A stretch of DNA of 64,000 nt from Desulfobulbaceae bacterium DB1 (lineage in GTDB: Bacteria > Desulfobacterota > Desulfobulbia > Desulfobulbales > SURF-16). The notes beneath the pieces were generated by a model that was not told the DNA's origin, did no database searches, and saw only the letters and a program-made list of their open reading frames with translations. The translations under genes were made by a program, and so were the position numbers. Each line of letters starts with the position of its first letter. The stretch's first letter is position 1. Location of the stretch: positions 448,225 through 512,224 of the forward strand of contig MQUF01000003.1 in NCBI GenBank assembly GCA_001914235.1, read 5' to 3'. This document shows, in pieces, positions 5,338 to 31,236 of this stretch.

Positions 5338-6183
5338 GTAACTCCTTTGGGTTAAAAAATGATGCGCCGGGATTGTTCCCGAAAAGGTGCACCTTGTCAC
5401 GCGGCAGTCTCTGCCGCGTTAATCTGTTTATTATTTATTTAATCAGGATTTTCAGTCGGTTGTGGGAAAAAGATGAAAAGTGCCAGACAACTTCAGGGAG
5501 GATTTCAATATCCTCGGTGAGGAATGCTTCGGACTTCTCCGTGAATGTTTTTTAGCCTGACGCTCATTTTTCAACCCGGTCCGGGTCGTTTGCCCCGGAT
5601 ACAGGGTGCTTGTTGCCATGAGCCGCCTGTCGCGAATCCCGTCATTCAGTGTTGCACCGGCGTTGTGGCCAACGGTACGTTTTACCATTCCTGCAAAACC
5701 AAAACATTTTGACTGCTTGGCAAAATAATCGATGTATTTCGGCGATTTATCAACACGCGACAAGGGATGCGAAGAATGATTCCAGCTGGGGTCTCGATCA
5801 TATAGTGAACCTGGTTCGGGCATACAGCCGCAATATGCTCTCCTTTGTAAGTGGTCGGCAGACGACTTTAACGATAGCAAACCAGGCAAATGCAACAACG
5901 TGGCGGGAATATAACGTGAAAGGAATATGCTTTTACTCCAAATATTATTTCCAGCATTTATAACTCGATAATTTCATAATGGCAACAGAATAATTTTACA
6001 TAATAATTTCACGAACACGTTTCCCGCCCTCAAAAGGCTCGCCTTGCCGGCTCATGAAATATATCTGGCTTTTTCCTGGATTTCATATTAAATAAAGAGG
6101 TTCGTCTTTATGGGAGTGGTTTCCAGAATGCCGCCCAGGCGGAGACTATTATTTAACGTACTCACTGAAAGGAGAATCTCCCT

Positions 6184-11909: not shown

Positions 11910-13229
11910 GTGAAACCGGATACAATCCATATAGTCTTCATTTTAATTTTATCCTGCCTTTCGCCATTTACCGCGGCCATGGCCGATACCGCGGCAAAAG
12001 AGCAAAGAAAATTCATCGAGCCGACCGGCAAAATCACCCTGGCTGATGCCATTGCAGCGGCGTTGGCCAACAATCCGGACATTGCCGCGGCATCCCACGA
12101 AATCAGTGCGCGTCACAACGCGCAGCTCCAGGAAGGAGTGTTCGCCAACCCGACATTTTTCAGTGAGTTCGAGGAATTCGGCGGATCGGGAAACTTCTCG
12201 GACGCTGATGCCCTCGGGGCCAGCGCCGGCATCAGCCAGGAAATACCATTGGCCGGCAAACGGGCCAAACGTGTCCGCATCGCCGAATATGAAACAACTA
12301 TCGCCGGCTTGCAAATGCAGGCAAAAATGCTGGCACTGACACGTGATGTGAAGAAAAAATTTCAGCGCGTCCACTCCCTTGAACAGCAGCTCCTCCTGGA
12401 AAATGAAAACATCGCACTGCTTCAGGATATCCAGGATGTCATTATCAGGCAAATTGCCCTGGGGGATATCCCGCCGCTTGATGAAAGAAAAGCGACTGTT
12501 GAACTCGCCTTGGCGAAATCCGCCCTGGCCCGGGCCGCGAGAGAGCTTGCAGTGGCCCGTATCGAGCTGGCTTCCAGCTGGGGCAGCAGGGAGGTCCATT
12601 TCGATCAAGTTGAACCCGTTGGTCGTGCAATACAGCCTCTCCCAACTGAAGACGAACTCTGGCGGGCGGCGCAGGGACATCCTGAAATGGAAATCAACCG
12701 TATCCGGGTCGAACGGTTCAAGGCATCACTGGCCTTAGCCCAGGCAAAGGCCGTTCCCGACCTGGAAATCGAAGGGGGCGTCAAATATTTTAATGAGTCC
12801 TCCGACCACGCCTATTTCATAGGATTCAGCATACCCATTCCGGTTTTTGACCGCAACCAGGGCGGCATTCGTGAAGCCTCGGAACATATCCGGGCAGGCA
12901 AAAAAGAACTCGACGGCACTGCCAATCGCCTGAGAGCGGAACTGGCTGTCCTGCGTGAACGCCTGCAAATTATCACGGCGGAATTAGAAACAACGGCAAC
13001 GACGATTCTCCCCGCCGCCCAGGAAGCATATGAAGCTCTCGCAAAGGCTTATCAAGCCGGAGAAAAGGATTACCTCGAGCTTCTTGATTCGCAGCGAACC
13101 CTGATTGAGGTCAAACGGCAAAATCTGCTTTTGCAGACTGAACACCAAGAACTGTTGGCCGATCTCGAAGCGATCACGGGAAAAGCTGCCGAATCATTTC
13201 CCCGGAACCATCCGACCCTTTCAGAGTAA
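11910..13229 (+). CDS. czcC: TolC-family outer-membrane efflux protein (CzcC-like)
   Basis: GTG start after AAAGGAGAG and a signal peptide. Two-repeat OEP architecture. It sits first in a C-B-A efflux operon. Confidence 0.85.
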   Translation: MKPDTIHIVFILILSCLSPFTAAMADTAAKEQRKFIEPTGKITLADAIAAALANNPDIAAASHEISARHNAQLQEGVFANPTFFSEFEEFGGSGNFSDADALGASAGISQEIPLAGKRAKRVRIAEYETTIAGLQMQAKMLALTRDVKKKFQRVHSLEQQLLLENENIALLQDIQDVIIRQIALGDIPPLDERKATVELALAKSALARAARELAVARIELASSWGSREVHFDQVEPVGRAIQPLPTEDELWRAAQGHPEMEINRIRVERFKASLALAQAKAVPDLEIEGGVKYFNESSDHAYFIGFSIPIPVFDRNQGGIREASEHIRAGKKELDGTANRLRAELAVLRERLQIITAELETTATTILPAAQEAYEALAKAYQAGEKDYLELLDSQRTLIEVKRQNLLLQTEHQELLADLEAITGKAAESFPRNHPTLSE

Positions 13230-18149: not shown

Positions 18150-18566
18150 CTATTCGCTCGAAGCGCTGCGGCAGGCCTCATCAAGACGGGTTTCAACGTA
18201 GCGGACAAGTTCATCATCCCGCTGTTCAATATCAAAGCAGACGGCATCCTCACCGAGCAGACCACCGGGAACAAAAGCACCTTTTTCTTCCGGGTCGGTT
18301 ATCATTTCGCTGTAAAAACACACGGAAAGCCAGCGCGGGCTGTCTTCAATCACATCGACCATGACAAAAAGCCCTTTTTTTTTCTGCGCGGCATGGACAG
18401 CCCGGAGTGAATAGGTGAGGCCCGGCCTGGGGACGAATGCCAGGGAGACTCCCTCTTTTCGACCGAGGTATTCCCTGAAACGCCAAAAGACATCTCGGTT
18501 TCCTTCAGGCGTTTCCTGCCACTCCTTCATAAAAGCAATAAGCTCTGAATCCGTTTCTTTTCCCAC
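18150..18566 (-). CDS. Hypothetical protein
   Basis: 138-aa ORF with coding-like composition. No motif recognised. Confidence 0.45.
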   Translation of the reverse strand: MGKETDSELIAFMKEWQETPEGNRDVFWRFREYLGRKEGVSLAFVPRPGLTYSLRAVHAAQKKKGLFVMVDVIEDSPRWLSVCFYSEMITDPEEKGAFVPGGLLGEDAVCFDIEQRDDELVRYVETRLDEACRSASSE

Positions 18567-18643: not shown

Positions 18644-21100
18644 CTAAAAACGAATGATCGCCCCGGCCCCCCAGCCGAAATCGGAATGCCATTGGCCGAT
18701 CAGGGAAAAACTTTTCGACAGCATGTACGTGAGGCCCGCCTTGCCTTCCCATTGTGCGGCATGGGTATCATATTCGGCTTCACCGATCAGGGCCAGGCGC
18801 GGGGTCAGGGCGAATTCCTTGTCAAAGGAAAAACGACCGCCGCCGTCGCTGTCCAGCCAATAGCGGGACTCAATCAGCAGCGGCAGCAGCCAGGTGACAC
18901 CCACAACTCCACGGGAATGTTCCGTATCGCTGCCCTGCCCCAGCATATCGAACCCGGCAAACACGGTGAAAAAACGATTGATATACCTGTCCCAGGACAG
19001 AAATCCTTCCCACTCATTTTTATCGACACGCTGCCAGCCCGACTCCCATTCCGCTGAAAGGGTGTTGCGGGTGCCGGCAGCCGTTAAAAAAACCTCGGCC
19101 ATGTTGCTTGTCAACGCAGCCTCGCCCCAGGAGTGCCACATATCAATGTAAAGTTGCGGACGGATGGCGGCAACCTCGTCCGGCATCACAAAATTATCGT
19201 AGTGAAGCAGGCGGGCCATGCCGCTTTCCATGTGGTAAAGGAGATGGCAGTGAAAAAACCAGTCTCCGGTTTCGTTGGCGTCAAATTCGATAACCGTGGT
19301 GGACATGGGAGCGACATTGACCGTGTGTTTCAGCGGCGCATGATCGCCCTGTCCATTGACAACCCGGAAAAAATGGCCGTGCAGATGCATGGGATGATGC
19401 ATCATGGTGCGGTTGATCATAATGAAACGGACAATCTCGCCCTGGCTCACCGGAATGACGTCGGTCTCGGAAAGCGCCTGGTTGTTCATAAACCAGACAT
19501 AGCGTTCCATATCCCCGTCCAGGGTTAGCCGGATTTCCCGCACCGGCCTGTTGCCGGCAAAGGCGGTTGCGGAGACGGCCCGCAATTTTTCATAAGGCGG
19601 CCATGGACGGCTCTGATCCATGCCGTCCATGGCAAGACTGCCGGCCGAGGAAACATCGGAAGCCATCGGCCGGAAATCAGCGCCGTATTTTTTGCCGTTC
19701 CGTTCACCCCGGTCTCTTGTCCTTTGCTGTTGCGGCGCCATGTCCCCCATGTCATGACCGGCGTGGCTGACAACAGGTTGCGCCGCTTCACCTTCCCCCC
19801 TGCTTTCCGTGGTCGGGGCGGCATGACTCTCCATACCATGCCCCGTATGCGGGGAACCCGCGCCATGATCCATGCCGGGCATAACCGGTTTCTCCATCAT
19901 CTCCATCCGGTCCATGCCATGCCCCACATGACCCATGTCACCCATGTCATCCATGCCGCCCATTGCCGTCATGCCGGGTTTGTCGAACATGCCGGCGGAG
20001 ACCGCATCATCATCCATGCCCATTGAGGCCGCCGGGTTCAAAGCGAACAGGGTGCCCAGGCTGAGATCGCCCATGGCATGATAGAGATTCGGTTTCGGCA
20101 CATCGGGCGCGGGACGGGAATCACCAGTGCCGAGCCACACCGAGGTGAAACCCGACCCATCGTGGGCGGTTGCCCGCAATTCGCAAGCGCCTTTTTGCGG
20201 AACCGTGATGAGCACGTCATAGGTCTCCGCAACGCCGATGAGCAAACGTTCCGTTTCCACCGGTTCCACATCGATACCGTCGGCCGCGATGATCCGCATG
20301 GGGCCGCCGGCGAATTCAAGGTGAAAAAAGGTGGTGGAGGAGCCATCAATGATTCGCAACCGGATTGTTTCTCCCGGTTGGGCGTCAAGATGCATTTCCG
20401 TGCTGCCGTTGGCAAGAAAACGGTCATAGGCGACATCGGCGATGTCCATGGCCGGCATGCGCCCCAGCTCGCGCTTGAAATAATCGGCAAGCATGCCGAG
20501 ACGAATGGCGCCGACTATACTTTGCGCGCTGCCCTTTTCAACGGCAAACCACTCGCTGCCGCGTTTCAGGGTGCGGATAATCTGGTGCGGGTCTTCATCG
20601 GCCCAGTCGGAAAGCAGGATCACATAATCACGGTCAGCCGGGAAACGGGGAACAGTGGGCTCGATGACAATGGCGCCGTACACGCCGCGTTGCTCCTGCA
20701 GACCGGTATGGGAGTGATACCAGTAGGTTCCGCTCTGCCGAATGGGAAACTCATAGGTAAAAGTAGTACCCGGGGCGATTGGCGGAAAGCTGACATACGG
20801 AACCCCGTCCATGCCGGGGGGCACCAGGATGCCGTGCCAATGAAGAGAGGTTTCGACAGCCATTCTGTTGCTGACGTGAATACGGGCGAGATCCCCCTCC
20901 CGGAACCGTAATACCGGACCGGGAATGGAGCCGTTGATGGTCATCGCCGTGGTCGGCGTGCCGGTGATATCGACAGCCTGAGAGGCAATTTCAAGGTGGT
21001 ACTGACTGGTTTTCGCATGCACCGTTGCCAGACCGAGCAGGACCATGATGACGGTGATCACGGGTTGCCATAAAAAGAATATGCGTTTTTCCCGGGGCAT
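18644..21100 (-). CDS. Multicopper oxidase (CopA-like) fused to a C-terminal CopB-like outer-membrane domain
   Basis: Cu-site motifs HWHG, YWYHSH, HPMHLHGH and HCHLLYHMESGM, plus a Met/His-rich linker. The last ~190 aa resemble the CopB barrel (..GVVGVTWLLPLLIESRYWLDSDGGGRFSFDKEFALTPRLALIGEAEYD..) and end in a terminal Phe. The start is set to ATG 21100, after AAAAAGGAGA. Confidence 0.85.
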   Translation of the reverse strand: MPREKRIFFLWQPVITVIMVLLGLATVHAKTSQYHLEIASQAVDITGTPTTAMTINGSIPGPVLRFREGDLARIHVSNRMAVETSLHWHGILVPPGMDGVPYVSFPPIAPGTTFTYEFPIRQSGTYWYHSHTGLQEQRGVYGAIVIEPTVPRFPADRDYVILLSDWADEDPHQIIRTLKRGSEWFAVEKGSAQSIVGAIRLGMLADYFKRELGRMPAMDIADVAYDRFLANGSTEMHLDAQPGETIRLRIIDGSSTTFFHLEFAGGPMRIIAADGIDVEPVETERLLIGVAETYDVLITVPQKGACELRATAHDGSGFTSVWLGTGDSRPAPDVPKPNLYHAMGDLSLGTLFALNPAASMGMDDDAVSAGMFDKPGMTAMGGMDDMGDMGHVGHGMDRMEMMEKPVMPGMDHGAGSPHTGHGMESHAAPTTESRGEGEAAQPVVSHAGHDMGDMAPQQQRTRDRGERNGKKYGADFRPMASDVSSAGSLAMDGMDQSRPWPPYEKLRAVSATAFAGNRPVREIRLTLDGDMERYVWFMNNQALSETDVIPVSQGEIVRFIMINRTMMHHPMHLHGHFFRVVNGQGDHAPLKHTVNVAPMSTTVIEFDANETGDWFFHCHLLYHMESGMARLLHYDNFVMPDEVAAIRPQLYIDMWHSWGEAALTSNMAEVFLTAAGTRNTLSAEWESGWQRVDKNEWEGFLSWDRYINRFFTVFAGFDMLGQGSDTEHSRGVVGVTWLLPLLIESRYWLDSDGGGRFSFDKEFALTPRLALIGEAEYDTHAAQWEGKAGLTYMLSKSFSLIGQWHSDFGWGAGAIIRF

Positions 21101-21174
21101 TGGCGTCTCCTTTTTTGCCGGTCGCGCTTCCACAGACATGATGAATCAATCCTACATATTCACCGGGCAAAAAG

Positions 21175-21804: not shown

Positions 21805-22000
21805 AATGACCTCCCTCACAGGACCAGTTATCTTATATTACTATATTTATTTTTACATAAAAAGTAATTAATGAGAAAAAATCATAAAAAATAAATATGC
21901 GACATTGACAACACTCTTGATGTAATTATTTTTTTATCAAAGAAAAGCGCAGCAAAAAAAGTCTGATCCCAAAAATGAAAATAAAAAAAGGAGGTACACT

Positions 22001-22447
22001 ATGTGGACACGGTGGAATGACATTGATCGCATGTTTACTGCCATGGATCTGCTGCAATCCAGAATGAACCGGATTTTCCCTGATTACGACAGATTCCGGG
22101 TAATGCCGGCCGGCTGGGGCGTGACGGAAAGCGGACCCAGGACAAATCTCTACGATGCCGGTGACCATTTTGAAGTCAAGGTCGAAGTTGCGGGTCTTGC
22201 CAAAGAGGACCTCAACATCAAGATTCAGGGCAACTATCTTGAGATAAGCGGCACCAGAAAAGCGGATGCGCCGGAAGGATACACCGCCCACCGGGTGGAA
22301 CGTGGCACCACGTCCTTCACCCGCAGTTTCACCCTGCCTGCGGATGTCAATGCGGACAAGGTGAAGGCAACGCTGCTGAATGGACTGCTGACTCTGGCAT
22401 TACCGAAATCAGAGGCGGCAAAACCGAAACAGATCACCGTCAACTGA
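22001..22447 (+). CDS. Hsp20/alpha-crystallin small heat-shock protein
   Basis: AGGAGG RBS. Alpha-crystallin domain (FEVKVEVAGLAKEDLNIKIQGNYLEISG..FTRSFTLP..GLLTLALPK). Confidence 0.9.
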   Translation: MWTRWNDIDRMFTAMDLLQSRMNRIFPDYDRFRVMPAGWGVTESGPRTNLYDAGDHFEVKVEVAGLAKEDLNIKIQGNYLEISGTRKADAPEGYTAHRVERGTTSFTRSFTLPADVNADKVKATLLNGLLTLALPKSEAAKPKQITVN

Positions 22448-22477
22448 TATCCCGGACGAAACAAAAGGAGAATTGCC

Positions 22478-22864
22478 ATGACCGATAGAAACGATATTGT
22501 GAAAAGAGAAGAAACCATGCCGGAAAGAAGCCGTGAGTTGCCGGCAGTTGTGCCTCTTGTCGACATATATGAAAATGAGGATGAAATTCTGCTTTACGCC
22601 GATATGCCGGGCGTGGAAAAAAACAACATCACCATCAATATAGAAAACGGCAAACTCGCCCTCTCCGCCATCCGCAAAATTACGGCAAGCGGCGCTGCGG
22701 GCTGGGAGGAGTTCAGCGACGTGGAGTATCAACGAACCTTTTCCGTGCCCCAGGCCATTGATGTCGGCAAAGTCAATGCGGAATTAAAAGACGGCGTCCT
22801 GCGTCTCCACCTGCCGAAATCAGAGGCGGCAAAACCGCGGCAGATCGAAATAAAAGCCGGCTGA
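22478..22864 (+). CDS. Hsp20/alpha-crystallin small heat-shock protein (second paralogue)
   Basis: ILLYADMPGVEKNNITINIENGKLAL..YQRTFSVP..GVLRLHLPKSEAAKPRQIEI. Confidence 0.9.
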   Translation: MTDRNDIVKREETMPERSRELPAVVPLVDIYENEDEILLYADMPGVEKNNITINIENGKLALSAIRKITASGAAGWEEFSDVEYQRTFSVPQAIDVGKVNAELKDGVLRLHLPKSEAAKPRQIEIKAG

Positions 22865-23106: not shown

Positions 23107-23835
23107 ATGCGACTGGCCATTATTTCCGACATCCACGGCAATTACCGGGCCCTGCAGGCTGTCTTGCGGGATATCGACGCCATCGGCGTGGATGATATCA
23201 TCTCGCTGGGTGACAATATCGGCTATGGACCGGAACCGGAAGAGGTGGTGCAGACCCTGCTGCAACGAAAAATCGATTCGGTCATGGGCAATCACGAGCT
23301 CGGCCTGGCCAGCGCCAGCGCCTTGCAACGACTCAATGCGAGTCCACGCCTTTCCCTTGAACTCACCCGGCAACTGATGACAAAAGAGTCCCTGCAATTC
23401 TCCATATCCCTGCCGCCCTTTCTGGTCCGCCACAAGACCCGTTTTGTCCACGGCTGCCCACCCGCATCAATTACCGCCTATCTCTGGAACCCCACCGAAA
23501 CGCGACTGTCGCGGCTCTTTGCCGGTTATGCCGAAACCATCTGTTTTTTCGGCCATACCCACAATCTCTCCCGCTTTCAAAGGCGAGCGGAACGCTGCTT
23601 CACGGAAAACGCCGGCCTGGGGGAATTTGCATTGCTGCCGGATGCCCGATACATCATCAACCCCGGCAGCGTCGGGCAACCCAGGGATACAATCAACAAC
23701 AAGGCCAAATACGGCATCTGGCATATGGATACGATGCTTTTTGAACAGCGGGCCGTGAGCTATGATGTGCAAGCCACGGTTGCCCTGCTCGCGGAACGCG
23801 AATTCCCCTCATCGAACGCGATCAGGCTTCTTTGA
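23107..23835 (+). CDS. Metallophosphoesterase with PPP-like motifs (possible Ser/Thr phosphatase partner)
   Basis: Motifs ISDIHGN (DxHG), SLGDNIGYG (GDxx..G), MGNHE (GNHE) and GHTH. Confidence 0.85.
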   Translation: MRLAIISDIHGNYRALQAVLRDIDAIGVDDIISLGDNIGYGPEPEEVVQTLLQRKIDSVMGNHELGLASASALQRLNASPRLSLELTRQLMTKESLQFSISLPPFLVRHKTRFVHGCPPASITAYLWNPTETRLSRLFAGYAETICFFGHTHNLSRFQRRAERCFTENAGLGEFALLPDARYIINPGSVGQPRDTINNKAKYGIWHMDTMLFEQRAVSYDVQATVALLAEREFPSSNAIRLL

Positions 23836-23848
23836 GCGAAATCAGGTC

Positions 23849-25172
23849 ATGGAAAAAATAGGTCGCTATCACATTCTACGCAAGCTCGGCAGAGGAGGAA
23901 TGGGCTCGGTCTACAAGGCCGTCGTACCGGTCATCAACAAGGTGGTGGCGATAAAAGTCCTGGACCCCTTTGAAACGCTCGTCGCCCTCCTTGGAAATGA
24001 AAGGTTGCGGGAAATTTTCACATTCGAGGCGGTGACGATGGCCGGCCTCCACCATCCCGGGGTGGTCGATGTCTGGGACTTTGGAGAAGACGAACAGGGA
24101 CGGCCTTATTTTGTCATGGAGTTCTTCTGCAATAACCTGGGCAATATGACGGGCGAGAGCTTCCAGATGGAAAAGGCCTGCCGCCGCATCAACCCGGACA
24201 AGGTCCTCAGCTATGGCAGGCAGATTCTCGATGGTCTTGCCTGCCTGCACCACAACCAGATTATCCACCGGGATATCAAGCCGTTCAACATCCTGATAAC
24301 AGATGAAGACCGGGCCAAGATCTGCGATTTCGGCATGGCGCTTTCAAAAGGATTTTCTTTTTCCGAACCAAAAAAAAATGCAGATCGGGTCACCTTACTA
24401 TGCAGCCCCCGAACAGGCGAGTCATCCGGACAGGGTTGACGGCCGGGCCGACCTCTATTCAGCCGGGGTGCTGCTTTACCGCATGCTGACCGGAGAACTG
24501 CCGAGCATGCGCAGTTTTTCCCTGAGCCGGGTGAATCCCCTCTATGATAATGCCTGGGACGATTTTTTTTCAAGGTCGCTGAGCCTCCATCCCGACAATC
24601 GTTTCCAGACGGCTGACGACATGGCGGAGGGTTTGAATCGACTCCATGTCCACTGGCAGACCGTCACCAGGCAGCAGACGTTGCAAAACCCAAAAAAGAA
24701 AAACGAGAAAAGGATCATCCTGCGCAAGGAGCCGAAAAACGTCTGCGGGAAAAAGGCCCGGATCCTTTTCGGCCTGAACGAAATGCACCGCCCTGACAAC
24801 GCCGTTCCAAACCACTTCATCAATGCGGAAAAAGACATCATCCTTGACGAGGCAACCGGGCTTTTCTGGCAGCATGACTGCAACCAATACAGCCTGTCCT
24901 GGCAGGCAGCCGTGGACTATGTCGCAACCCTCAACAGTCAAGCGTTTGCCGGCAAAAACAACTGGCGGCTGCCCACGGTAAACGAACTCGTCTCATTATT
25001 GCGCGAAGAGGCCTGGCAATCCGCAACAACCCCCTTTGCCGATCGGGGAAAATGGTTGTGGAGCTGCGATCGCCATGGCGAAAGAGATGCCTGGTATGTC
25101 AACATGGATATGGGTTTTGCCGACTGGCAGGATATCACCTGCCGCAACTTTGCCCGGGCGGTCTCCGGCTAA
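23849..25172 (+). pseudogene. Ser/Thr protein kinase with C-terminal DUF1566-like domain, reading frame broken in an A9 run
   Basis: The first frame carries GRGGMGSVYKA, VAIKVL, HRDIKPFN and DFG. The next frame carries SPYYAAPEQ and the rest of the kinase. The DUF1566-like end is NNWRLPTVNELVSL..WSCD. The switch occurs at A9 (24370-24378); A8 would give one continuous frame. Confidence 0.8.
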
Positions 25173-25911
25173 CCCCCATCCCCGTGGACGGGAACAACGA
25201 AGCATGAAACTTTAAAAGAAATAGGCCATAGTTATCTTCTTAATTTTTCTCGACAAAAAAAGAAGGAGGATAACCATGTGATCAACGGCAATTATTTTCC
25301 CCGTTCCCGCGACAATTAAAATTCCAAAAATCGGATTTAAGCTGCCCACTGTGACCGAATAAGGACAAATCAGGTGAAGCTATTATTTTTTTGTGCTATT
25401 ATAAAAATTGTTCACTATCTTCACCAGCTTCGTCTTTTAGAGGGGGTTTTCTCAGAAACACTCACAGATGTCGAATCCGCGTTTTTCATCACTTTGTGAG
25501 TTTCCGCCCTTCATGAGGATATACCCCGATTTATCCGAATCTTCCGACGGTCGCTTAACCGCGAACTGATCTCTTTATATACCCCGAGGGAATTTCTTTG
25601 GGGAAATTTATCATTCAAAGTGCATCTCCGCACCGGCACTTTCTCGCTTACAGGACTGGAGCAATTTTCATTTCCGGCTGCAACCCTGCGAAAGCAATGT
25701 ACTCCACGGTTTCCGGAAGACGGATTACTCTTCCTTGACGTTTGTTGTCCCGCAAATCTTCGCCAGGCGATGGCTCTTTAGTCGCATCACGGATTTCGGC
25801 GCGTCAAGAGTCATGGCAGAACAGTTTTCATCCGGGCATCACCAATCAGACTCGACGCCGAGGTCCGGCCGCCGGCCTGAAGAACATTCATCTCTTATGA
25901 GGAGCAAAACC

Positions 25912-26040
25912 ATGAGTAAAGAACAAAAAAACATAAAGGCGGATAAAAAAAAACCGGCTATGAGTCCAAAAGAAAAGAAAGCTGCGAAGAAATCCAAGAA
26001 GGAATCGAAGAAGCTTTTTGCCTTTGACAAGACGAGCTGA
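25912..26040 (+). CDS. Hypothetical 42-aa Lys-rich small protein
   Basis: AGGAG lies 7 nt upstream of the ATG. Sequence is MSKEQKNIKADKKKPAMSPKEKKAAKKSKKESKKLFAFDKTS. Only context and RBS support it. Confidence 0.4.
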   Translation: MSKEQKNIKADKKKPAMSPKEKKAAKKSKKESKKLFAFDKTS

Positions 26041-26186
26041 ATTTGACTCACTCCGGGACTCTGCCTTTTTTTACCCTGATGACCATCAATACCCGCCGAA
26101 ACAGCTCATCAGGGTAAAATTATGCCCGACAGAGAATTGACTGATGGCGCTGAAAGCGGGCGGTATAAATTCCCCGAGTCTCACAG

Positions 26187-26498
26187 GTGAGCCGTTCCGC
26201 CGACTTCCTCGGATTTAAGCCGGGAGTATGTCATCGTCATAAAAAAATTGGATTTTCAGAACGCACACGGAATGTGCTGCGTAACGACCGGGATACCGAG
26301 CTCCTGCGTTCGGAACTGTTCAGCATCGAACAGCTGAAGCGTCACGCGGTAACCTTGGCCGGCCGGCATAGAATCAACCCACGTTCAGGTCCGGACAGGT
26401 TGCAGCCACGCCTGGCGGACAATCCGCGCGTCCTGCTGACAGCCTATGAAATTGTGACAGCTGCCGCAGCCACGCCGGACCGCCCCGCAGATCGATAG
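26187..26498 (+). pseudogene. N-terminal relic of a cyclic beta-1,2-glucan synthase / GH94-type giant protein
   Basis: LRSELFSIEQLKRHAVTLAGRH..GPDRLQPRLADNPRVLLTAYEIV resembles, from memory, the conserved N-terminal segment of NdvB-like proteins. The ORF stops after about 100 aa and abuts the next gene. Confidence 0.45.
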
Positions 26499-26505
26499 AA
26501 ACGGT

Positions 26506-27099: not shown

Positions 27100-30000
27100 A
27101 TGAAACTAATTACCTTTTCCATTAATGCAGTCGAATTGACGGTAGCCGGCGGCACCACCATTCTGGACGCCGCGGAAAAAATCGGCATACCCATACCAAC
27201 CCTTTGCCGTGTAGCGGACAAATCCGAGGCAGACTGCGGCATCTGCGCAGTGGAATGCGAAGGCAGCGAAGAATTGCTTCGGGCATGCAGCACGCAGGCT
27301 GCAGCCGGCATGGTCATCCGCACGGACACCGAAACGGTGAAGAAATACCGGCAAAAGCAACTGACTCGCCTCGCGGCAACCCATTTCGGCGACTGCAAGG
27401 CTCCCTGCAATCTGACCTGCCCCGGCCAGATTAATGTCCAGGGTTATATCGCCCATGTCGCAAAAGGACAGTATGAAGAGGCGGTTCGCCTGATCATGGA
27501 ACGCAACCCCTTTCCCTTTTCAGTGGGGCGTGTCTGCCCCCGTTTCTGCGAAACCCGCTGCCGGCGCATTCTGGTTGATGAGCCTGTTTCCATCAACCAC
27601 CTGAAACGATTTGTCGCGGACTGGTGCATGGCGAACAAGATTGATCTCAAAATCCGCCGCCGATCGCTGACCGGAAAAAAAGTGGCGGTGGTGGGCGGCG
27701 GCCCGGCGGGGCTCACCGCCGCCTACTTTCTGGCCGAAAAAGGTCACGCGGTTACGGTGTTTGAGGCCAATGACAAACTTGGCGGCATGCTGCGCTATGG
27801 CCTGCCGGAATACAAGATTCCCAAAAAGATCCTGGATTACGAAATCAGCAGCATTCTGCGCCTTGGAATCTCAGTACAGCTCAACCAGCACTGGGGGAGA
27901 GACTTTACCCTGGCAAGCCTGAATGAGCAAGGTTTTGACTCGGTGCTGCTGACCATCGGCACCACCGTTGACCAGCCTCTTGAAATTCCGGGTGCAACCC
28001 TGAACAATGTGCTGCCGGCTACCCGGTTTCTCCACATGGTCAATGAAGAGGTGGGAAGGGATTACGGCCGAAGAGCCGCTGTGATAGGCGGCAACAATGT
28101 GGCCATGGAAACGGCCCGCTGCCTGCTCCGCAACAATGTGGACCAGGTGACCATCATCTATCCCCGGGCGCAGCTCGAGATGCCGGCCAACCAGCGAAAC
28201 ATCCGTGAGGCGGAAAGGGAAGGAGTTCAGTTTCTACTCATGGCCTCCCCCATTCAGATCATGGAAAAAGACGGCGGTCTCGAGCTGGAACTGATCCGCA
28301 TGAAACTGGGAGAGGCTGACGCCAGAGGAATCCGCCTGCCGGTGGCCATCCCCGGATCCGCCAATATTCTCAAGGTGGATACGGTAATCTATGCATTGGG
28401 ACAGTCGGCCTGCGGGGAAGAGGGCATTCCCGGTGACCGGCAGGCGGACGACCTTGAATTCACCCCCGGCAACATTATCAAGGCCAACCCGAGAACCTCG
28501 CTTACCAATCTTGCTGATGTTTATGCCGCAGGCGATGCGACAAGCGGCCCCCGATCCGTCATCCAAGCCGTTGTTTCAGCCCGGCGAGCCGCGGAAAACA
28601 TCCACGCCGCACTTATGGCGGTGAGTAAAGAACCGGCCGACAGCCGTTTTAATTTTTCCCGCGGCCGATCATTTGATGACGTTGACATGCGCAACTTCGA
28701 CGGGGTCAAGGTGCGATTGCGGGAAAAAATGCCGTCACGGCCGCCGGAGCGATGCATCCAGGATTTCGACGAGGTCAAACTCGGTTTCACTGAACAGATG
28801 GCCAGGCGGGAGGCGGCACGATGCCTTTCCTGCGGCTGCACCGCTTTTGACCGGTGCGATTTCAAGCGACTGTGCATCGAAAATTTCGTTGATCCGAACA
28901 AAACCGGCATGGGGACGTCCCCGCGCTACAAAAAGGATCTGTCCCATCCTGTCATTGCGGTTGATCTCGACAAGTGCGTCTTCTGCCGGCGCTGCGTCAA
29001 TTCCTGCCAATACGGGGCCCTGGAGATGTCAGCCGCCTCCCTTGACAACGAAGGCCGGCCCCAGGAAATACGTCTTCGTTTCAATGAAAAATGCACCCAC
29101 TGCGGCCAATGCGTCGACAGCTGCTCAACCGGCGCCCTGAACAAAAAAGACATGTCCGTGCCGATCACGGGCGAAGCGACACGGGAGATACGCACCACCT
29201 GCCCTTACTGCGGGGCCGGCTGCCAGATGCTGCTCAAGGTGAAGGGCAATACCATCATGGAGGTGGAGTCGGAGCCTGATCTGGCACCCAATTACGGCGC
29301 GCTCTGCGTTAAGGGACGCTTTGCCTTTAACTTCATTCATCATCCGGACCGTCTGACTCGCCCGTTGATCAGGCGGAACGGCCAGCTGGTGGAGACCTCC
29401 TGGGAAGAGGCCTTAAATCATGCGGCAAAACGTTTTTTTGATATCAAGGCGATGTATGGCGCGGACGCCATTGCCGGATTTTCCTGCGCCCGGGCAACCA
29501 ACGAAGAAAATTATCTGATGCAGAAATTCATGCGTACAGCGATCGGCACCAACAATATCGATCATTGTGCACGACTTTGACACGCGCCAACCGTGGCCAG
29601 TCTGGCCATCACTTTCGGCAGCGGCGCAATGACAAACTCCATTGCCGATGCAGTCAACGGCAAAACCGATCTCTTTCTGATGATCGGCAGCAATCCCGAC
29701 ACCAGCCATCCCACCATCGGCCTGCGCATCCACCAGGCCGTTGATCGAGGAGCCAAGCTGATCGTCATCGATCCGCGCAAAACAAAACTTGCCGAGCGGG
29801 CCGATCATTGGCTGCGCATTCTTCCCGGTACCGATGTGGCAATGCTGAACGGACTGATGCACATCATCATCGAGGAGGACCTCTGGGACAAGGAGTTTGT
29901 CGCGGAGCGTACCGAAGATTTCGATGAGCTGCGCACCCTGGTGAAAAAATATCCGCCGGAGATGGTGGCCCGCATCACCGGCATCACCGCTGAGCAACTG

Positions 30001-31236
30001 CGCCGTGTGGCCCGCATGTATGCCGCTCCGGGCCGGCACGCCATATACCACGGGATGGGAATCACCCATTACACCACCGGCACCGATCGAGTTAAATCCA
30101 TCGCCAACCTGGCGATGCTCTGCGGCAAGGTCGGGATGGAGGGCGGCGGCTGCAACCCCCTGCGCGGACAGAACAACGTCCAGGGCGCCTGCGACATGGG
30201 CGCCCTGTTCAACACCCTGCCGGGCTACGGCGGGCTGGATGACGACGACCTGTTCGATTGCTACGAAAAACTCTGGAATGTCAAACTGCCGCGGCGTCCC
30301 GGCAAACCCGCCACCGAGGTGTGGGACAACATCATGAAGGGAGACATCCGCGCCCTCTACATCTTCGGGGAGGATCCGGCCATTGCCGACGCCAATATCG
30401 GTCATGTGCGTCAGGCACTGGAGGAAGTCGATTTCCTGGTGGTGCAGGATATTTTTCTCACTGAAACCGCCAAGGCAGCGGACGTGGTGTTTCCTGCCGC
30501 CTGTTTCGCCGAGAAAGACGGCACCTTTGCCTCCACCGAACGGAGGGTGCAGCGGGTGCGCAAAGCGGTGGATCCACCCGGTGATGCGAAACCGGACTGG
30601 CGGATCTTCTGCGAACTGTCCCGTAAGATGGGTTATCCCCTCGAGTACGAAAGCGTTGAGCATATATTTCAGGAAATCGCTTCCATTCTCCCCCAATACC
30701 GGGGTATAAGCTATAAACGGCTTGATACCGTCGGTCTGCAGTGGCCGGTGCCTGATGCGGACCATCCAGGCACCCCGGTGTTGCATATCGGCAATTTCAC
30801 CCGGGGCAAGGGCTTATTTGTTGCCGAGGACTATATCCCGCCGCAGGAACCGGTAAACGATGAGTACCCGTTGCTCTTTACCACCGGCCGCCATTATGCC
30901 CGGTACAACTTCAGCAGCATGACCGGCAAAACCCTGGAGATCGATGATATCGCGCCCGAGGCACTGGCTGAGATCAACCCGAAAGACGCCGAACAGATGG
31001 GAATCAACGAAGGCGACATATTGCGCCTGACATCGCGGCGCGGCGCAGTCACCATCAAGGCGACCATTACCGATCGAACCCAGCAGGGCACCGTTTTCAC
31101 CACCTACAACTACCATGACACGCCGGTCAACCTTCTTACCCTGGATGCACTGGATCGTTTGTCCCGTACCCCGGAATACAAGCTCTGCGCAATCAGAGTA
31201 GAGGTGGTTGAGAAAAAAACATCTTGTGAGAGATAA
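27100..31236 (+). CDS. fdhA: Selenocysteine-containing formate dehydrogenase alpha subunit fused to 2Fe-2S ferredoxin, GltD-like NAD(P)H-FAD oxidoreductase and 4Fe-4S domains (TGA 29578-29580 read as Sec)
   Basis: Track ORFs 27100-29580 and 29593-31236 are in the same frame and are joined by ..[32 protein letters not shown], the FdhF/FdhA Sec motif. N-terminal 2Fe-2S region (CRVADKSEADCGICAVEC). GltD-like dinucleotide folds (VAVVGGGPAGLTAAYFLA, AAVIGGGNVAME). Two CxxCxxCxxxC ferredoxin motifs, then the MopB cluster CPYCGAGC. Confidence 0.9.
29578..29620 (+). promoter_or_regulatory. SECIS element for the FdhA selenocysteine codon
   Basis: Hairpin TGGCC-AGTCT-GGCCA begins 16 nt after the U of UGA. 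G and U sit at positions 23 and 24 from the UGA, the same positions as the SelB-contacted G23/U24 in the E. coli fdhF apical loop. Confidence 0.75.

Follow-up and report, generated by a model that had tools for sequence, protein, structure and literature searches.

The phosphoesterase gene and the broken kinase gene

The window analyzed here is a stretch of 64,000 nucleotides from Desulfobulbaceae bacterium DB1, a bin-genome recovered from the anode biofilm of a microbial fuel cell, and it corresponds to contig_359 of the source study (Ishii et al.). All coordinates refer to this window. The upstream gene of the pair described below (23107..23835, + strand; OKY76508.1, locus tag BM485_04570) encodes a metallophosphoesterase of 242 aa, whose translation contains the motifs SDIHGN, GDNIGYG, and GNHE. 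The protein matched two Pfam models, Metallophos_2 (PF12850; 8.6e-18, 65.3 bits against a cut-off of 27) and Metallophos (PF00149; 2.5e-14, 54.6 bits against a cut-off of 21.5). Both these profiles and the motifs DxH, GDxx..G, and GNH[ED] place it in the calcineurin-like metallophosphoesterase superfamily. Among solved structures, its best relative was 3rqz, which matched over the full length (3.3e-34) and is itself an uncharacterised metallophosphoesterase. The preliminary description of this DNA had called the enzyme a PPP-motif metallophosphoesterase. The three motifs are present, but they are generic to calcineurin-like proteins, and the PPP label is too strong. When compared with the PrpA/PrpB-type models of NCBIfam, the protein scored only 36.1 bits against 332 (NF007425) and 26.3 bits against 326 (NF008516), and these partial scores came from the N-terminal 65 residues only. 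The Asp-Arg of GDxVDRG is also absent, motif II being GDNIGYG. Membership of the PPP family (PrpA/PrpB or lambda phosphatase type) was rejected on these two grounds.

The kinase gene starts 14 nt after the phosphoesterase gene, as had been described: its ATG is at 23849–23851 and the preceding TGA at 23833–23835, which leaves a spacer of 13 nt. The gene is encoded in two frames. The first (P0125; 23849..24439, + strand) specifies 196 aa, ends in TGA, and is listed as a separate gene in the annotation of the source metagenome. Residues 1–176 of its product are native and include the Gly-rich loop, VAIK, HRD, and DFG, and they are followed by 20 out-of-frame residues (NADRVTLLCSPRTGESSGQG). The second frame (P0006; 24378..25172, + strand) specifies 264 aa, corresponding to M177–G440 of the repaired protein followed by a stop codon, and holds GSPYYAAPEQ, the C-lobe, a linker, and the C-terminal domain. 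The frame changes at a homopolymer of nine A (A9; 24370..24378, + strand), which codes for P-K-K of the activation segment. When one A is deleted, a single frame of 440 aa plus stop (441 codons) is obtained, and the junction reads DFGMALSKGFSFSEPKKMQIGSPYYAAPEQ. Thus, the sequence and its translations confirm two earlier observations, namely that the kinase is split between DFG and APE exactly at A9 and that A8 restores one 441-codon frame.

The repaired protein was compared with Pfam. The protein kinase catalytic domain, which spans the frame break (23867..24515, + strand; residues 7–222), matched Pkinase (PF00069) at 3.2e-39, with 135.3 bits against a cut-off of 31.7. The Lcl_C domain, formerly DUF1566 (PF07603; 24837..25163, + strand; residues 330–438), matched at 1e-21, with 77.8 bits against a cut-off of 34.9, over profile positions 2–116 of 117. 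The initial reading of a Hanks-type kinase with a DUF1566-like C-terminus therefore holds for the repaired frame. No Pfam match was found between the two domains, and the kinase contains no PASTA domains. All the Hanks motifs (LGRGGMGSV, VAIK, HRDIKPFN, DFG, and AAPE) occur in the repaired protein and are kept across the family alignment, and the solved structures nearest to the kinase domain were the kinase domains of StkP and PknB (about 1e-26 to 4e-29). As encoded, however, the kinase subdomains are not on one polypeptide: the first ORF reaches DFG and terminates at 24439, and APE and the C-lobe are in the other frame.

The window contains 19 A/T runs of at least 8 nt, 10 of them inside putative genes. 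The kinase run alone breaks a frame, and the other nine genic runs are frame-consistent. A second split gene was sought with the gene map and a census of coding runs, and none was found in the window. A mechanical scan of homopolymers of at least 5 nt was too noisy for this purpose; it flagged normal operon junctions and antisense ORFs. One candidate, a pair of ORFs of 826 aa and 547 aa at 27100–31236, was rejected as a split gene, the interruption being an in-frame selenocysteine TGA instead.

Conservation of the gene pair

Genome contigs were searched with a profile made from the family alignment. The matches listed were mostly generic kinases, with neither DB1 nor additional close strains among them, and the search served for the survey of synteny and of the tract only. 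In this survey, 15 of the 22 Desulfobacterota loci compared had a metallophosphoesterase gene immediately upstream of the kinase orthologue. Judging from this gene order, a small metallophosphoesterase and a putatively soluble Hanks-type kinase with a C-terminal Lcl_C/DUF1566 domain form a two-gene module that is conserved in Desulfobacterota, and the phosphoesterase is plausibly the antagonist of the kinase with which it is paired. The pairing is an uncharacterised signalling module across Desulfobacterota and may merit study independently of the A tract. A reading of the pair as a defence system was rejected: in PADLOC, the kinase matched the PD-T4-6 and mad6 models through its generic kinase domain only, and the phosphoesterase matched nothing.

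The A tract in relatives

The preliminary description had proposed that the length of the tract be checked in orthologues, and this comparison was informative. The five nearest Logan contigs (SRR28386961, SRR14887730, SRR14887731, SRR14887733, and ERR3839024), which come from five public runs and two lineages and have 98–99.5% nucleotide identity to the window (99.5% for one lineage and about 98.5% for the other), all carry A8. The 440-aa kinase is complete in three of the five; the remaining two contigs break off within the gene, beyond a tract that is read through in frame. In an orthologue with 83% amino acid identity (GCA_964542105), the tract is CA7 and reads CCCAAAAAAATG. The tract was absent from the 30 family members aligned and from another 20 genome loci, all of which use other codons at this place (GPD/E-x). 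Every complete kinase copy compared is a single ORF. A DNA pattern that covered the tract was also run against metagenome contigs and gave seven chance matches and no relative. In an exact look-up, neither the repaired 440-aa protein nor the 441-aa protein made by adding two A was present in the protein collection, so no public assembly contains an intact kinase identical to that of DB1. A9 itself was seen in one assembly only, since a single sequence underlies the JGI contig, contig_359, and the window. Positions 24340–24410, around the tract, correspond to 36779–36849 of contig_359, and the metagenome assembly of the source study is AMWB02000000. The flanking proteins also occur on a GenBank record of 576,926 bp, which probably represents the same contigs after scaffolding and was not counted as independent.

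This distribution (A8 in the contigs nearest to DB1, CA7 in the orthologue of 83% identity, and nothing in more distant ones) shows that A8 is the ancestral state and that A9 is a private +1 expansion. Neither a conserved nor a programmed frameshift is supported, because the tract is unconserved and all complete copies are single ORFs; on this comparison, the tract is not a conserved recoding site. The dN/dS ratio of the kinase gene lay in the range 0.06–0.23, with 0.08–0.23 in comparisons with close strains and 0.14 against the orthologue of 83% identity, values which indicate that the gene is under purifying selection in the relatives. The kinase gene of DB1 has no second lesion, both of its halves are open, and no more than two or three of the substitutions private to the window fall inside it. 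The earlier account had named tract-less orthologues combined with further lesions as evidence that would speak against it. The first part holds, in that the tract is missing from the distant orthologues; the second does not, as the locus carries no further disabling mutation.

In a multi-strain alignment of 5.4 kb, the window had 10 private SNPs and 2 private indels, and both indels were in A runs. The only coding exceptions among the other indels relative to these strains were in the multicopper oxidase gene, namely an indel of 6 nt that keeps the frame and, at the 5′ end, a T5/T6 difference; the rest were non-coding. A T5/T6 difference at 21111 separates one related contig (L001) from two others (L094 and L095), which indicates natural slippage in this region. 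The contigs of two related strains stop or diverge inside the kinase gene at 24596/7, and the 28-nt foreign tail of L001 had no match in the window, in any of the loci compared, or in viral contigs.

Origin of the A9 allele

We consider that A9 is a real and very recent frameshift allele that arose by ordinary replication slippage, with a probability of roughly 0.6. The raw data of the source study comprised 185 Mb of 454 and 10.8 Gb of Illumina sequence, 454 thus contributing 1.7% of the bases, and the coverage of DB1 was 70–90x, nearly all of it Illumina. With so small a share of 454 reads and such high coverage, homopolymer miscalls of the 454 type would have been outvoted, and a real allele is therefore favoured over an artefact. 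Illumina reads also rarely give a wrong majority call at nine A. Nevertheless, there is an appreciable, though clearly smaller, chance that DB1 truly has A8 with an intact 440-aa kinase and that the extra A was introduced by the CLC assembly of mixed 454 and Illumina GAIIx reads. 454 Titanium reads were part of the assembly mix, the difference is one base in a 9-nt homopolymer, assembly errors are most often of this kind, and every other related contig has A8. The window is also odd at two or three A runs (21983, with A7 versus A8; 24370; and possibly 26241), and private indels make up 2 of the 12 private changes in the window versus 0 of 17 in the nearest relative, a difference that is suggestive but based on counts too small to decide. 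The kinase otherwise shows no defect and is under purifying selection, but this absence of decay fits an error and a very recent mutation equally well. Against an artefact, the nine other genic A/T runs of at least 8 nt are in frame, and the other indels relative to the related strains spare coding sequence, apart from the two in the multicopper oxidase gene, as expected of real mutations filtered by selection. Four options had originally been offered for the broken frame. Two of them, a sequencing error and a recent pseudogene, are left after this analysis. The other two, a selected phase-variable switch and slippage-dependent expression, are unsupported and, even when taken together, improbable.

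Several properties of the tract would suit a phase-variable (contingency) switch, in which the tract is kept because reversible slippage between A8 and A9 toggles the kinase in subpopulations: there are eight or nine A inside an ORF, and both in-frame and out-of-frame lengths appear among strains at least 98% identical. The two contigs that stop or diverge at 24596/7 might be added, as they could mean that the gene is lost in other ways too. However, the tract is confined to a very shallow clade: the orthologue of 83% identity has CA7 and more distant ones have no tract, so selection has not preserved it. Moreover, the same ON length is found in five of six contigs, genes of this genome often contain A/T runs of at least 8 nt (10 such runs in the window), and a cytoplasmic kinase is atypical of the gene classes concerned, known contingency loci being mostly those of surface structures or restriction-modification systems. 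We therefore regard such a switch as quite unlikely. Much the same applies to its extended form, in which the A8/A9 tract would be a reversible, heritable on/off or dimmer switch of the kinase in electroactive Desulfobulbaceae, switched by replication slippage with low-level rescue through transcriptional slippage, the OFF state having been selected during more than 800 days on the fuel-cell anode; we hold this to be distinctly improbable. Programmed recoding would mean that the full-length kinase is normally made from A9 through slippage of RNA polymerase (−1 or +2 A) or +1 slippage of the ribosome, either at a low level or as one of two products. In many bacteria, transcriptional slippage is efficient on runs as long as A9, and precedents include Thermus thermophilus dnaX, in which an A9 run gives about 50% altered product (PMC1088944), and Citrobacter rodentium tssM1, in which an A11 run gives 20–25% frameshifted product (PMC4256274). 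Nevertheless, we consider recoding very improbable here. No relative has the frameshifted arrangement, complete copies all being one ORF, and the frame is restored only by deleting one A or inserting two. With regard to a ribosomal frameshift site, the shift required is +1 (or −2) rather than −1, the −1 frame as read from the sequence closes after about 40 codons, and no stimulatory structure was found downstream, the 100 nt of RNA after the tract folding no better than shuffled sequences (z = −0.30). The 196-aa product, which is half a kinase domain, has no plausible function, and both ORFs were almost untranscribed in the source study (RNA-RPKM of 0 to 7.5 versus a DNA-RPKM of about 19). Finally, the 196-aa N-terminal and 264-aa C-terminal ORFs might both be translated and reassemble into a functional split kinase, as the ATG of M177 (24378–24380) opens the second frame at the end of the tract and the public annotation gives two genes. 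This is hardly credible: no Shine-Dalgarno sequence precedes that ATG (CCGAACCAAAAAAAAATG), the first-frame stop is 57 nt downstream of it, so coupling by termination and reinitiation is unlikely, the break is inside the activation segment, and no relative is split.

If A9 is a real and recent allele, the course of events was probably as follows. In the shallow clade around DB1, two Lys codons in the variable part of the activation segment form A8 by chance (CC AAA AAA AAT G). Replication slippage in DB1 would very recently have extended A8 to A9, which would have become the majority allele in the biofilm population of the fuel cell. Translation would then give the 196-aa fragment, ending just past DFG. 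Because this fragment would lack the P+1 loop, APE, and the whole C-lobe, it is predicted to be inactive, making the allele null or strongly hypomorphic. A high rate of reversion would be expected of a tract of nine A, and slippage of RNA polymerase might allow some full-length protein: a minority of mRNAs with one A fewer or two more could direct its synthesis. The allele, if real, could thus be weakly leaky.

The two “kinase” ORFs of DB1, to which K08884 was assigned twice in the table of the source study, are one gene with a one-base lesion, and the pair should be annotated as a frameshifted gene or pseudogene rather than as two proteins. The result has little import beyond annotation. If the allele is real, a signalling kinase that purifying selection preserves in all the relatives was completely or almost completely lost from this electroactive Desulfobulbaceae population, which would add modestly to the evidence on gene loss in long reactor enrichments.

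Comparison with known systems

The gene pair resembles the Hanks-type operons PknB/PstP, PrkC/PrpC, and StkP/PhpP in that the kinase domain is nearest to those of StkP and PknB and is in an operon with a phosphoesterase. In contrast to those operons, the partner is a calcineurin-like metallophosphoesterase, with 3rqz as its nearest relative, rather than a PP2C phosphatase, and the kinase lacks PASTA domains and ends in Lcl_C/DUF1566.

With regard to the tract, contingency loci of Neisseria, Haemophilus, Campylobacter, and Helicobacter are similar in that the length of a homopolymer within an ORF determines if the protein is produced; at the DB1 tract, one A9 sequence stands against five A8 contigs from two lineages of near-identical strains. 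In contrast, the tract of the DB1 clade is not maintained across the family, and the gene class is atypical. In systems of programmed slippage (T. thermophilus dnaX A9, IS transposases, and tssM1 A11), a run of at least nine A likewise lies in coding sequence with the downstream part in another frame. However, those systems conserve the arrangement and depend on both products or on their ratio, whereas the arrangement of DB1 is private to one assembly. Poly(A) frameshift alleles and young pseudogenes that are partly rescued by polymerase slippage, with poly(A) cases in endosymbionts among them, form a further class. The DB1 kinase as assembled resembles the disrupted ORFs with 9A/9T runs of this class (Baranov et al., 2005; PMC1088944): in both, a one-base change in a run of about nine A splits an otherwise intact and conserved gene, relatives still show the in-frame length from which it arose, and slippage could rescue some transcripts, although any rescue at the DB1 tract would need the loss of one A or the gain of two.

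The kinase reading frame is broken at an A9 tract

The kinase gene starts with an ATG at 23849, 13 nt past the TGA of the phosphoesterase gene, and its first frame covers the Gly-rich loop, VAIK, HRDIKPFN, and DFG, followed by CC-AAAAAAAAA-TG. The homopolymer in this segment is A9 (24370–24378). Past the tract, the first frame encodes 20 unrelated residues and stops at 24437–24439, and the kinase continues (MQIGSPYYAAPEQ...) in the +1 frame, which is open to 25172. Deletion of one A yields a protein of 440 aa with a Pkinase domain at residues 7–222 (3.2e-39) and an Lcl_C domain (PF07603, formerly DUF1566) at residues 330–438 (1e-21); the frame is likewise restored when two A's are added, which inserts one additional Lys. 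The preliminary description, in which a kinase with a DUF1566-like C-terminal domain follows the phosphoesterase, changes frame at A9 after DFG, and would be restored to a single frame by A8, was therefore correct, and the options that it listed were reasonable.

The extra A is the sole lesion seen in the DB1 kinase. The dN/dS of the kinase was 0.08 against SRR28386961, 0.23 against the SRR1488773x strain, and 0.14 against the orthologue with 83% identity, and just two or three substitutions in the gene are private to the window. Based on these results, the frameshift is either extremely recent or not real.

Tract length and gene integrity in relatives

The repaired kinase has thousands of homologues, and nearly all of the best 120 are ∼440 aa long with the same Pkinase and Lcl_C architecture; the named ones among these 120 come largely from Desulfobulbaceae and other Thermodesulfobacteriota. 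The only fragmentary near-identical matches were the two annotated halves of the DB1 kinase itself (P0125 and P0006) and P0023, which is cut near a contig end. The tract site is covered by five Logan contigs from five runs. The SRR28386961 contig shares 99.5% identity with the window, and those of SRR14887730, SRR14887731, SRR14887733, and ERR3839024 are ∼98–98.7% identical to it and essentially identical among themselves. All five have A8 and a single frame reading SEPKKMQIGSP; the kinase is complete (440 aa; P0124) in three of them, and the remaining two break off or diverge within the gene. In GCA_964542105 (83% amino acid identity), the tract is CCC AAA AAA ATG, i.e., CA7, and GP[DE]x or related residues occupy this position, with no A run, in a family alignment of 31 sequences and in another 20 genome loci. 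The tract thus arose by chance in this lineage, from two Lys codons in the variable part of the activation segment. Judged from these sequences, A8 is the ancestral state, with A9 private to DB1. This check of tract length in orthologues removes the more interesting options of the preliminary description, a phase-variable switch and slippage-dependent expression, and leaves an ordinary one-base homopolymer lesion, which would be either a genuine recent null allele or an assembly error.

Two of the Logan contigs, L001 (SRR28386961) and L095 (SRR14887733), both stop or diverge inside the kinase gene at 24596–24597 (codon ∼250), a position that may mark the boundary of an insertion element or a branch in the assembly graph. 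Past this point, L001 has 28 unrelated nt (5748–5775; GAACAAGGTTAGATTGTGAGAGCGCAGC) with no match in the window, other loci, or viral_contigs.

Real allele or assembly artefact

In total, we give A9 a probability of about 0.6–0.7 of being a real allele. Over the 6.7 kb compared, the window matches JGI contig Ga0052186_10019194 exactly, starting from position 12440 of that contig, and the source contig is contig_359 of bin-genome DB1, from the anode biofilm of a wastewater-fed microbial fuel cell (Ishii et al., 2015; PMC4595844). In that study, 454 Titanium and Illumina GAIIx reads were pooled and assembled with CLC (PMC4595844), which raised the suspicion of a 454 homopolymer miscall. However, the 454 data comprised only 185 Mb vs 10.8 Gb of Illumina data, i.e., 1.7% of bases, and the mean coverage of the DB1 contigs was 70–90x (supplementary tables, PMC4595844); therefore, the consensus was decided by ∼80x Illumina data.

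An artefact of assembly or sequencing is accordingly unlikely, although several observations speak for it. At 24370 and also at 21983 (A7 there, vs A8 in four contigs), the window stands alone, and it has 10 private SNPs and two private indels vs 17 and none in its nearest relative, counts too low to settle the question. Every public copy of the A9 allele traces to a single assembly, and an intact kinase identical to that of DB1 is absent from a collection of 15 billion proteins. Against this, only the kinase run breaks a frame among the 10 A/T runs of at least 8 inside putative genes of the window (T9 at 18375 included), and the remaining single-base indels relative to the relatives are non-coding (18063, 21983, 25745, and 26241) or fall at the very 5′ end of the multicopper oxidase gene. 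A homopolymer scan and the gene map revealed no second split gene within the window.

A/T homopolymers of at least 8 number 19 in the 64 kb (genome 54% G+C), ten of them inside putative genes, vs an estimate of ∼1 per 64 kb from base composition. The intergenic A runs at 21983 and 26241 are A7 in the window and A8 in the related contigs covering them; the former, whose A7 is private to the window, closely precedes the Shine-Dalgarno sequence of the first HSP20 gene, and the latter difference cannot be polarised. In the multicopper oxidase gene, ∼25 nt inside the 5′ end (21111–21116), the window and L001 have T6, whereas L094 (another Logan contig) and L095 have T5, which shifts the predicted start (831 aa vs 850 aa). 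This difference separates Logan contigs of different runs, so it looks natural. The gene also has a 6-nt in-frame indel (19930–19938) relative to the relatives.

The phosphoesterase gene and neighbouring genes

The phosphoesterase ORF (23107–23835, + strand; 242 aa; GenBank OKY76508.1, “MAG: Desulfobulbaceae bacterium DB1”) matches Pfam Metallophos_2 (8.6e-18) and Metallophos (2.5e-14), and its best solved relative is 3rqz, an uncharacterised metallophosphoesterase. The motifs behind its earlier description as a “PPP-motif” enzyme are present (SDIHGN, GDNIGYG, and GNHE), but they are common to the whole calcineurin-like superfamily, and the protein missed the cut-offs of the curated PPP protein-phosphatase models by a wide margin. 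Of 22 loci with a kinase orthologue from across Desulfobacterota, 15 have the phosphoesterase gene immediately upstream of it, which makes the pair a genuine conserved module; Desulfovibrionaceae-type loci have no phosphoesterase gene within 4 kb of the kinase orthologue. The dN/dS of the phosphoesterase was 0.12–0.33 against close strains and 0.15 against the 83% orthologue. PADLOC gave only generic kinase-domain matches at the locus and thus no case for a defence role.

Two tandem HSP20 genes (22001–22864) lie directly upstream of the pair, and the order HSP20–HSP20–phosphoesterase–kinase is kept in GCA_964542105. They are the only well-expressed genes of the neighbourhood in the source study (RNA-RPKM 34–137). 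The kinase is barely transcribed there (DNA-RPKM ∼19; RNA-RPKM 7.5/0/6.4 and 0/5.2/0; PMC4595844).

The 1.3-kb stretch downstream of the kinase (25173–26505) contains no convincing gene and differs from relatives by one 13-nt and one 2-nt indel. A lysine-rich 101-aa ORF within it has another A9 (25945–25953), and a 103-aa ORF (26187–26498), labelled “glycosyltransferase 36” in the source paper (PMC4595844), looks like the remnant of a much larger gene. Farther downstream, a formate-dehydrogenase-alpha-like gene (27100–31236) appears as two same-frame ORFs (826 and 547 aa), with an in-frame TGA (29578–29580) between them in the motif NIDHCARL*HAPTVASLA. The TGA sits at the classical selenocysteine position. 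The two ORFs form a single Sec-containing gene whose N-terminal extension is long and of Fe-S/NAD(P)H type, and a broken gene was rejected.

Consequences of the allele and comparison with known systems

If A9 is real, the 196-aa product would end after DFG, without the P+1 loop, APE, and the αF–αI core, so, from the architecture of Hanks kinases, it could not be an active kinase. The second frame opens with an ATG at 24378, upstream of which the sequence has no Shine-Dalgarno motif. A full-length kinase would require A8 or A11 mRNA, or a ribosomal slip of +1 or −2. In many bacterial genomes, nine A's mark the threshold run length from which selection against transcriptional slippage can be seen, and the A9 run of T. 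thermophilus dnaX gives ∼50% altered product (PMC1088944); for the A11 run of C. rodentium tssM1, the value is 20–25% (PMC4256274). By analogy with these yields and this threshold, some leaky rescue of the kinase by slippage is plausible. No RNA structure stands out downstream of A9 (z = −0.30), and the −1 frame past the tract closes after ∼40 codons. Replication slippage should also make reversion at the tract much more frequent than at ordinary sites, but such reversibility would be trivial and would not imply a selected switch. We consider it very improbable that A9 serves this electroactive bacterium as a reversible switch or dimmer of a signalling kinase, favoured by selection.

The DB1 module resembles PknB/PstP and StkP/PhpP in its kinase/phosphatase operon organisation. 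However, those systems use a PP2C enzyme and kinases with PASTA repeats, whereas the DB1 module has a calcineurin-like metallophosphoesterase and a kinase with a C-terminal Lcl_C domain. With programmed slippage genes and contingency loci, the DB1 kinase shares a single ingredient, an A run of at least nine in an ORF; the former are defined by a conserved out-of-frame arrangement and the latter by a tract maintained across the family, and the DB1 kinase has neither. It falls within the familiar class of homopolymer frameshift alleles or young pseudogenes.
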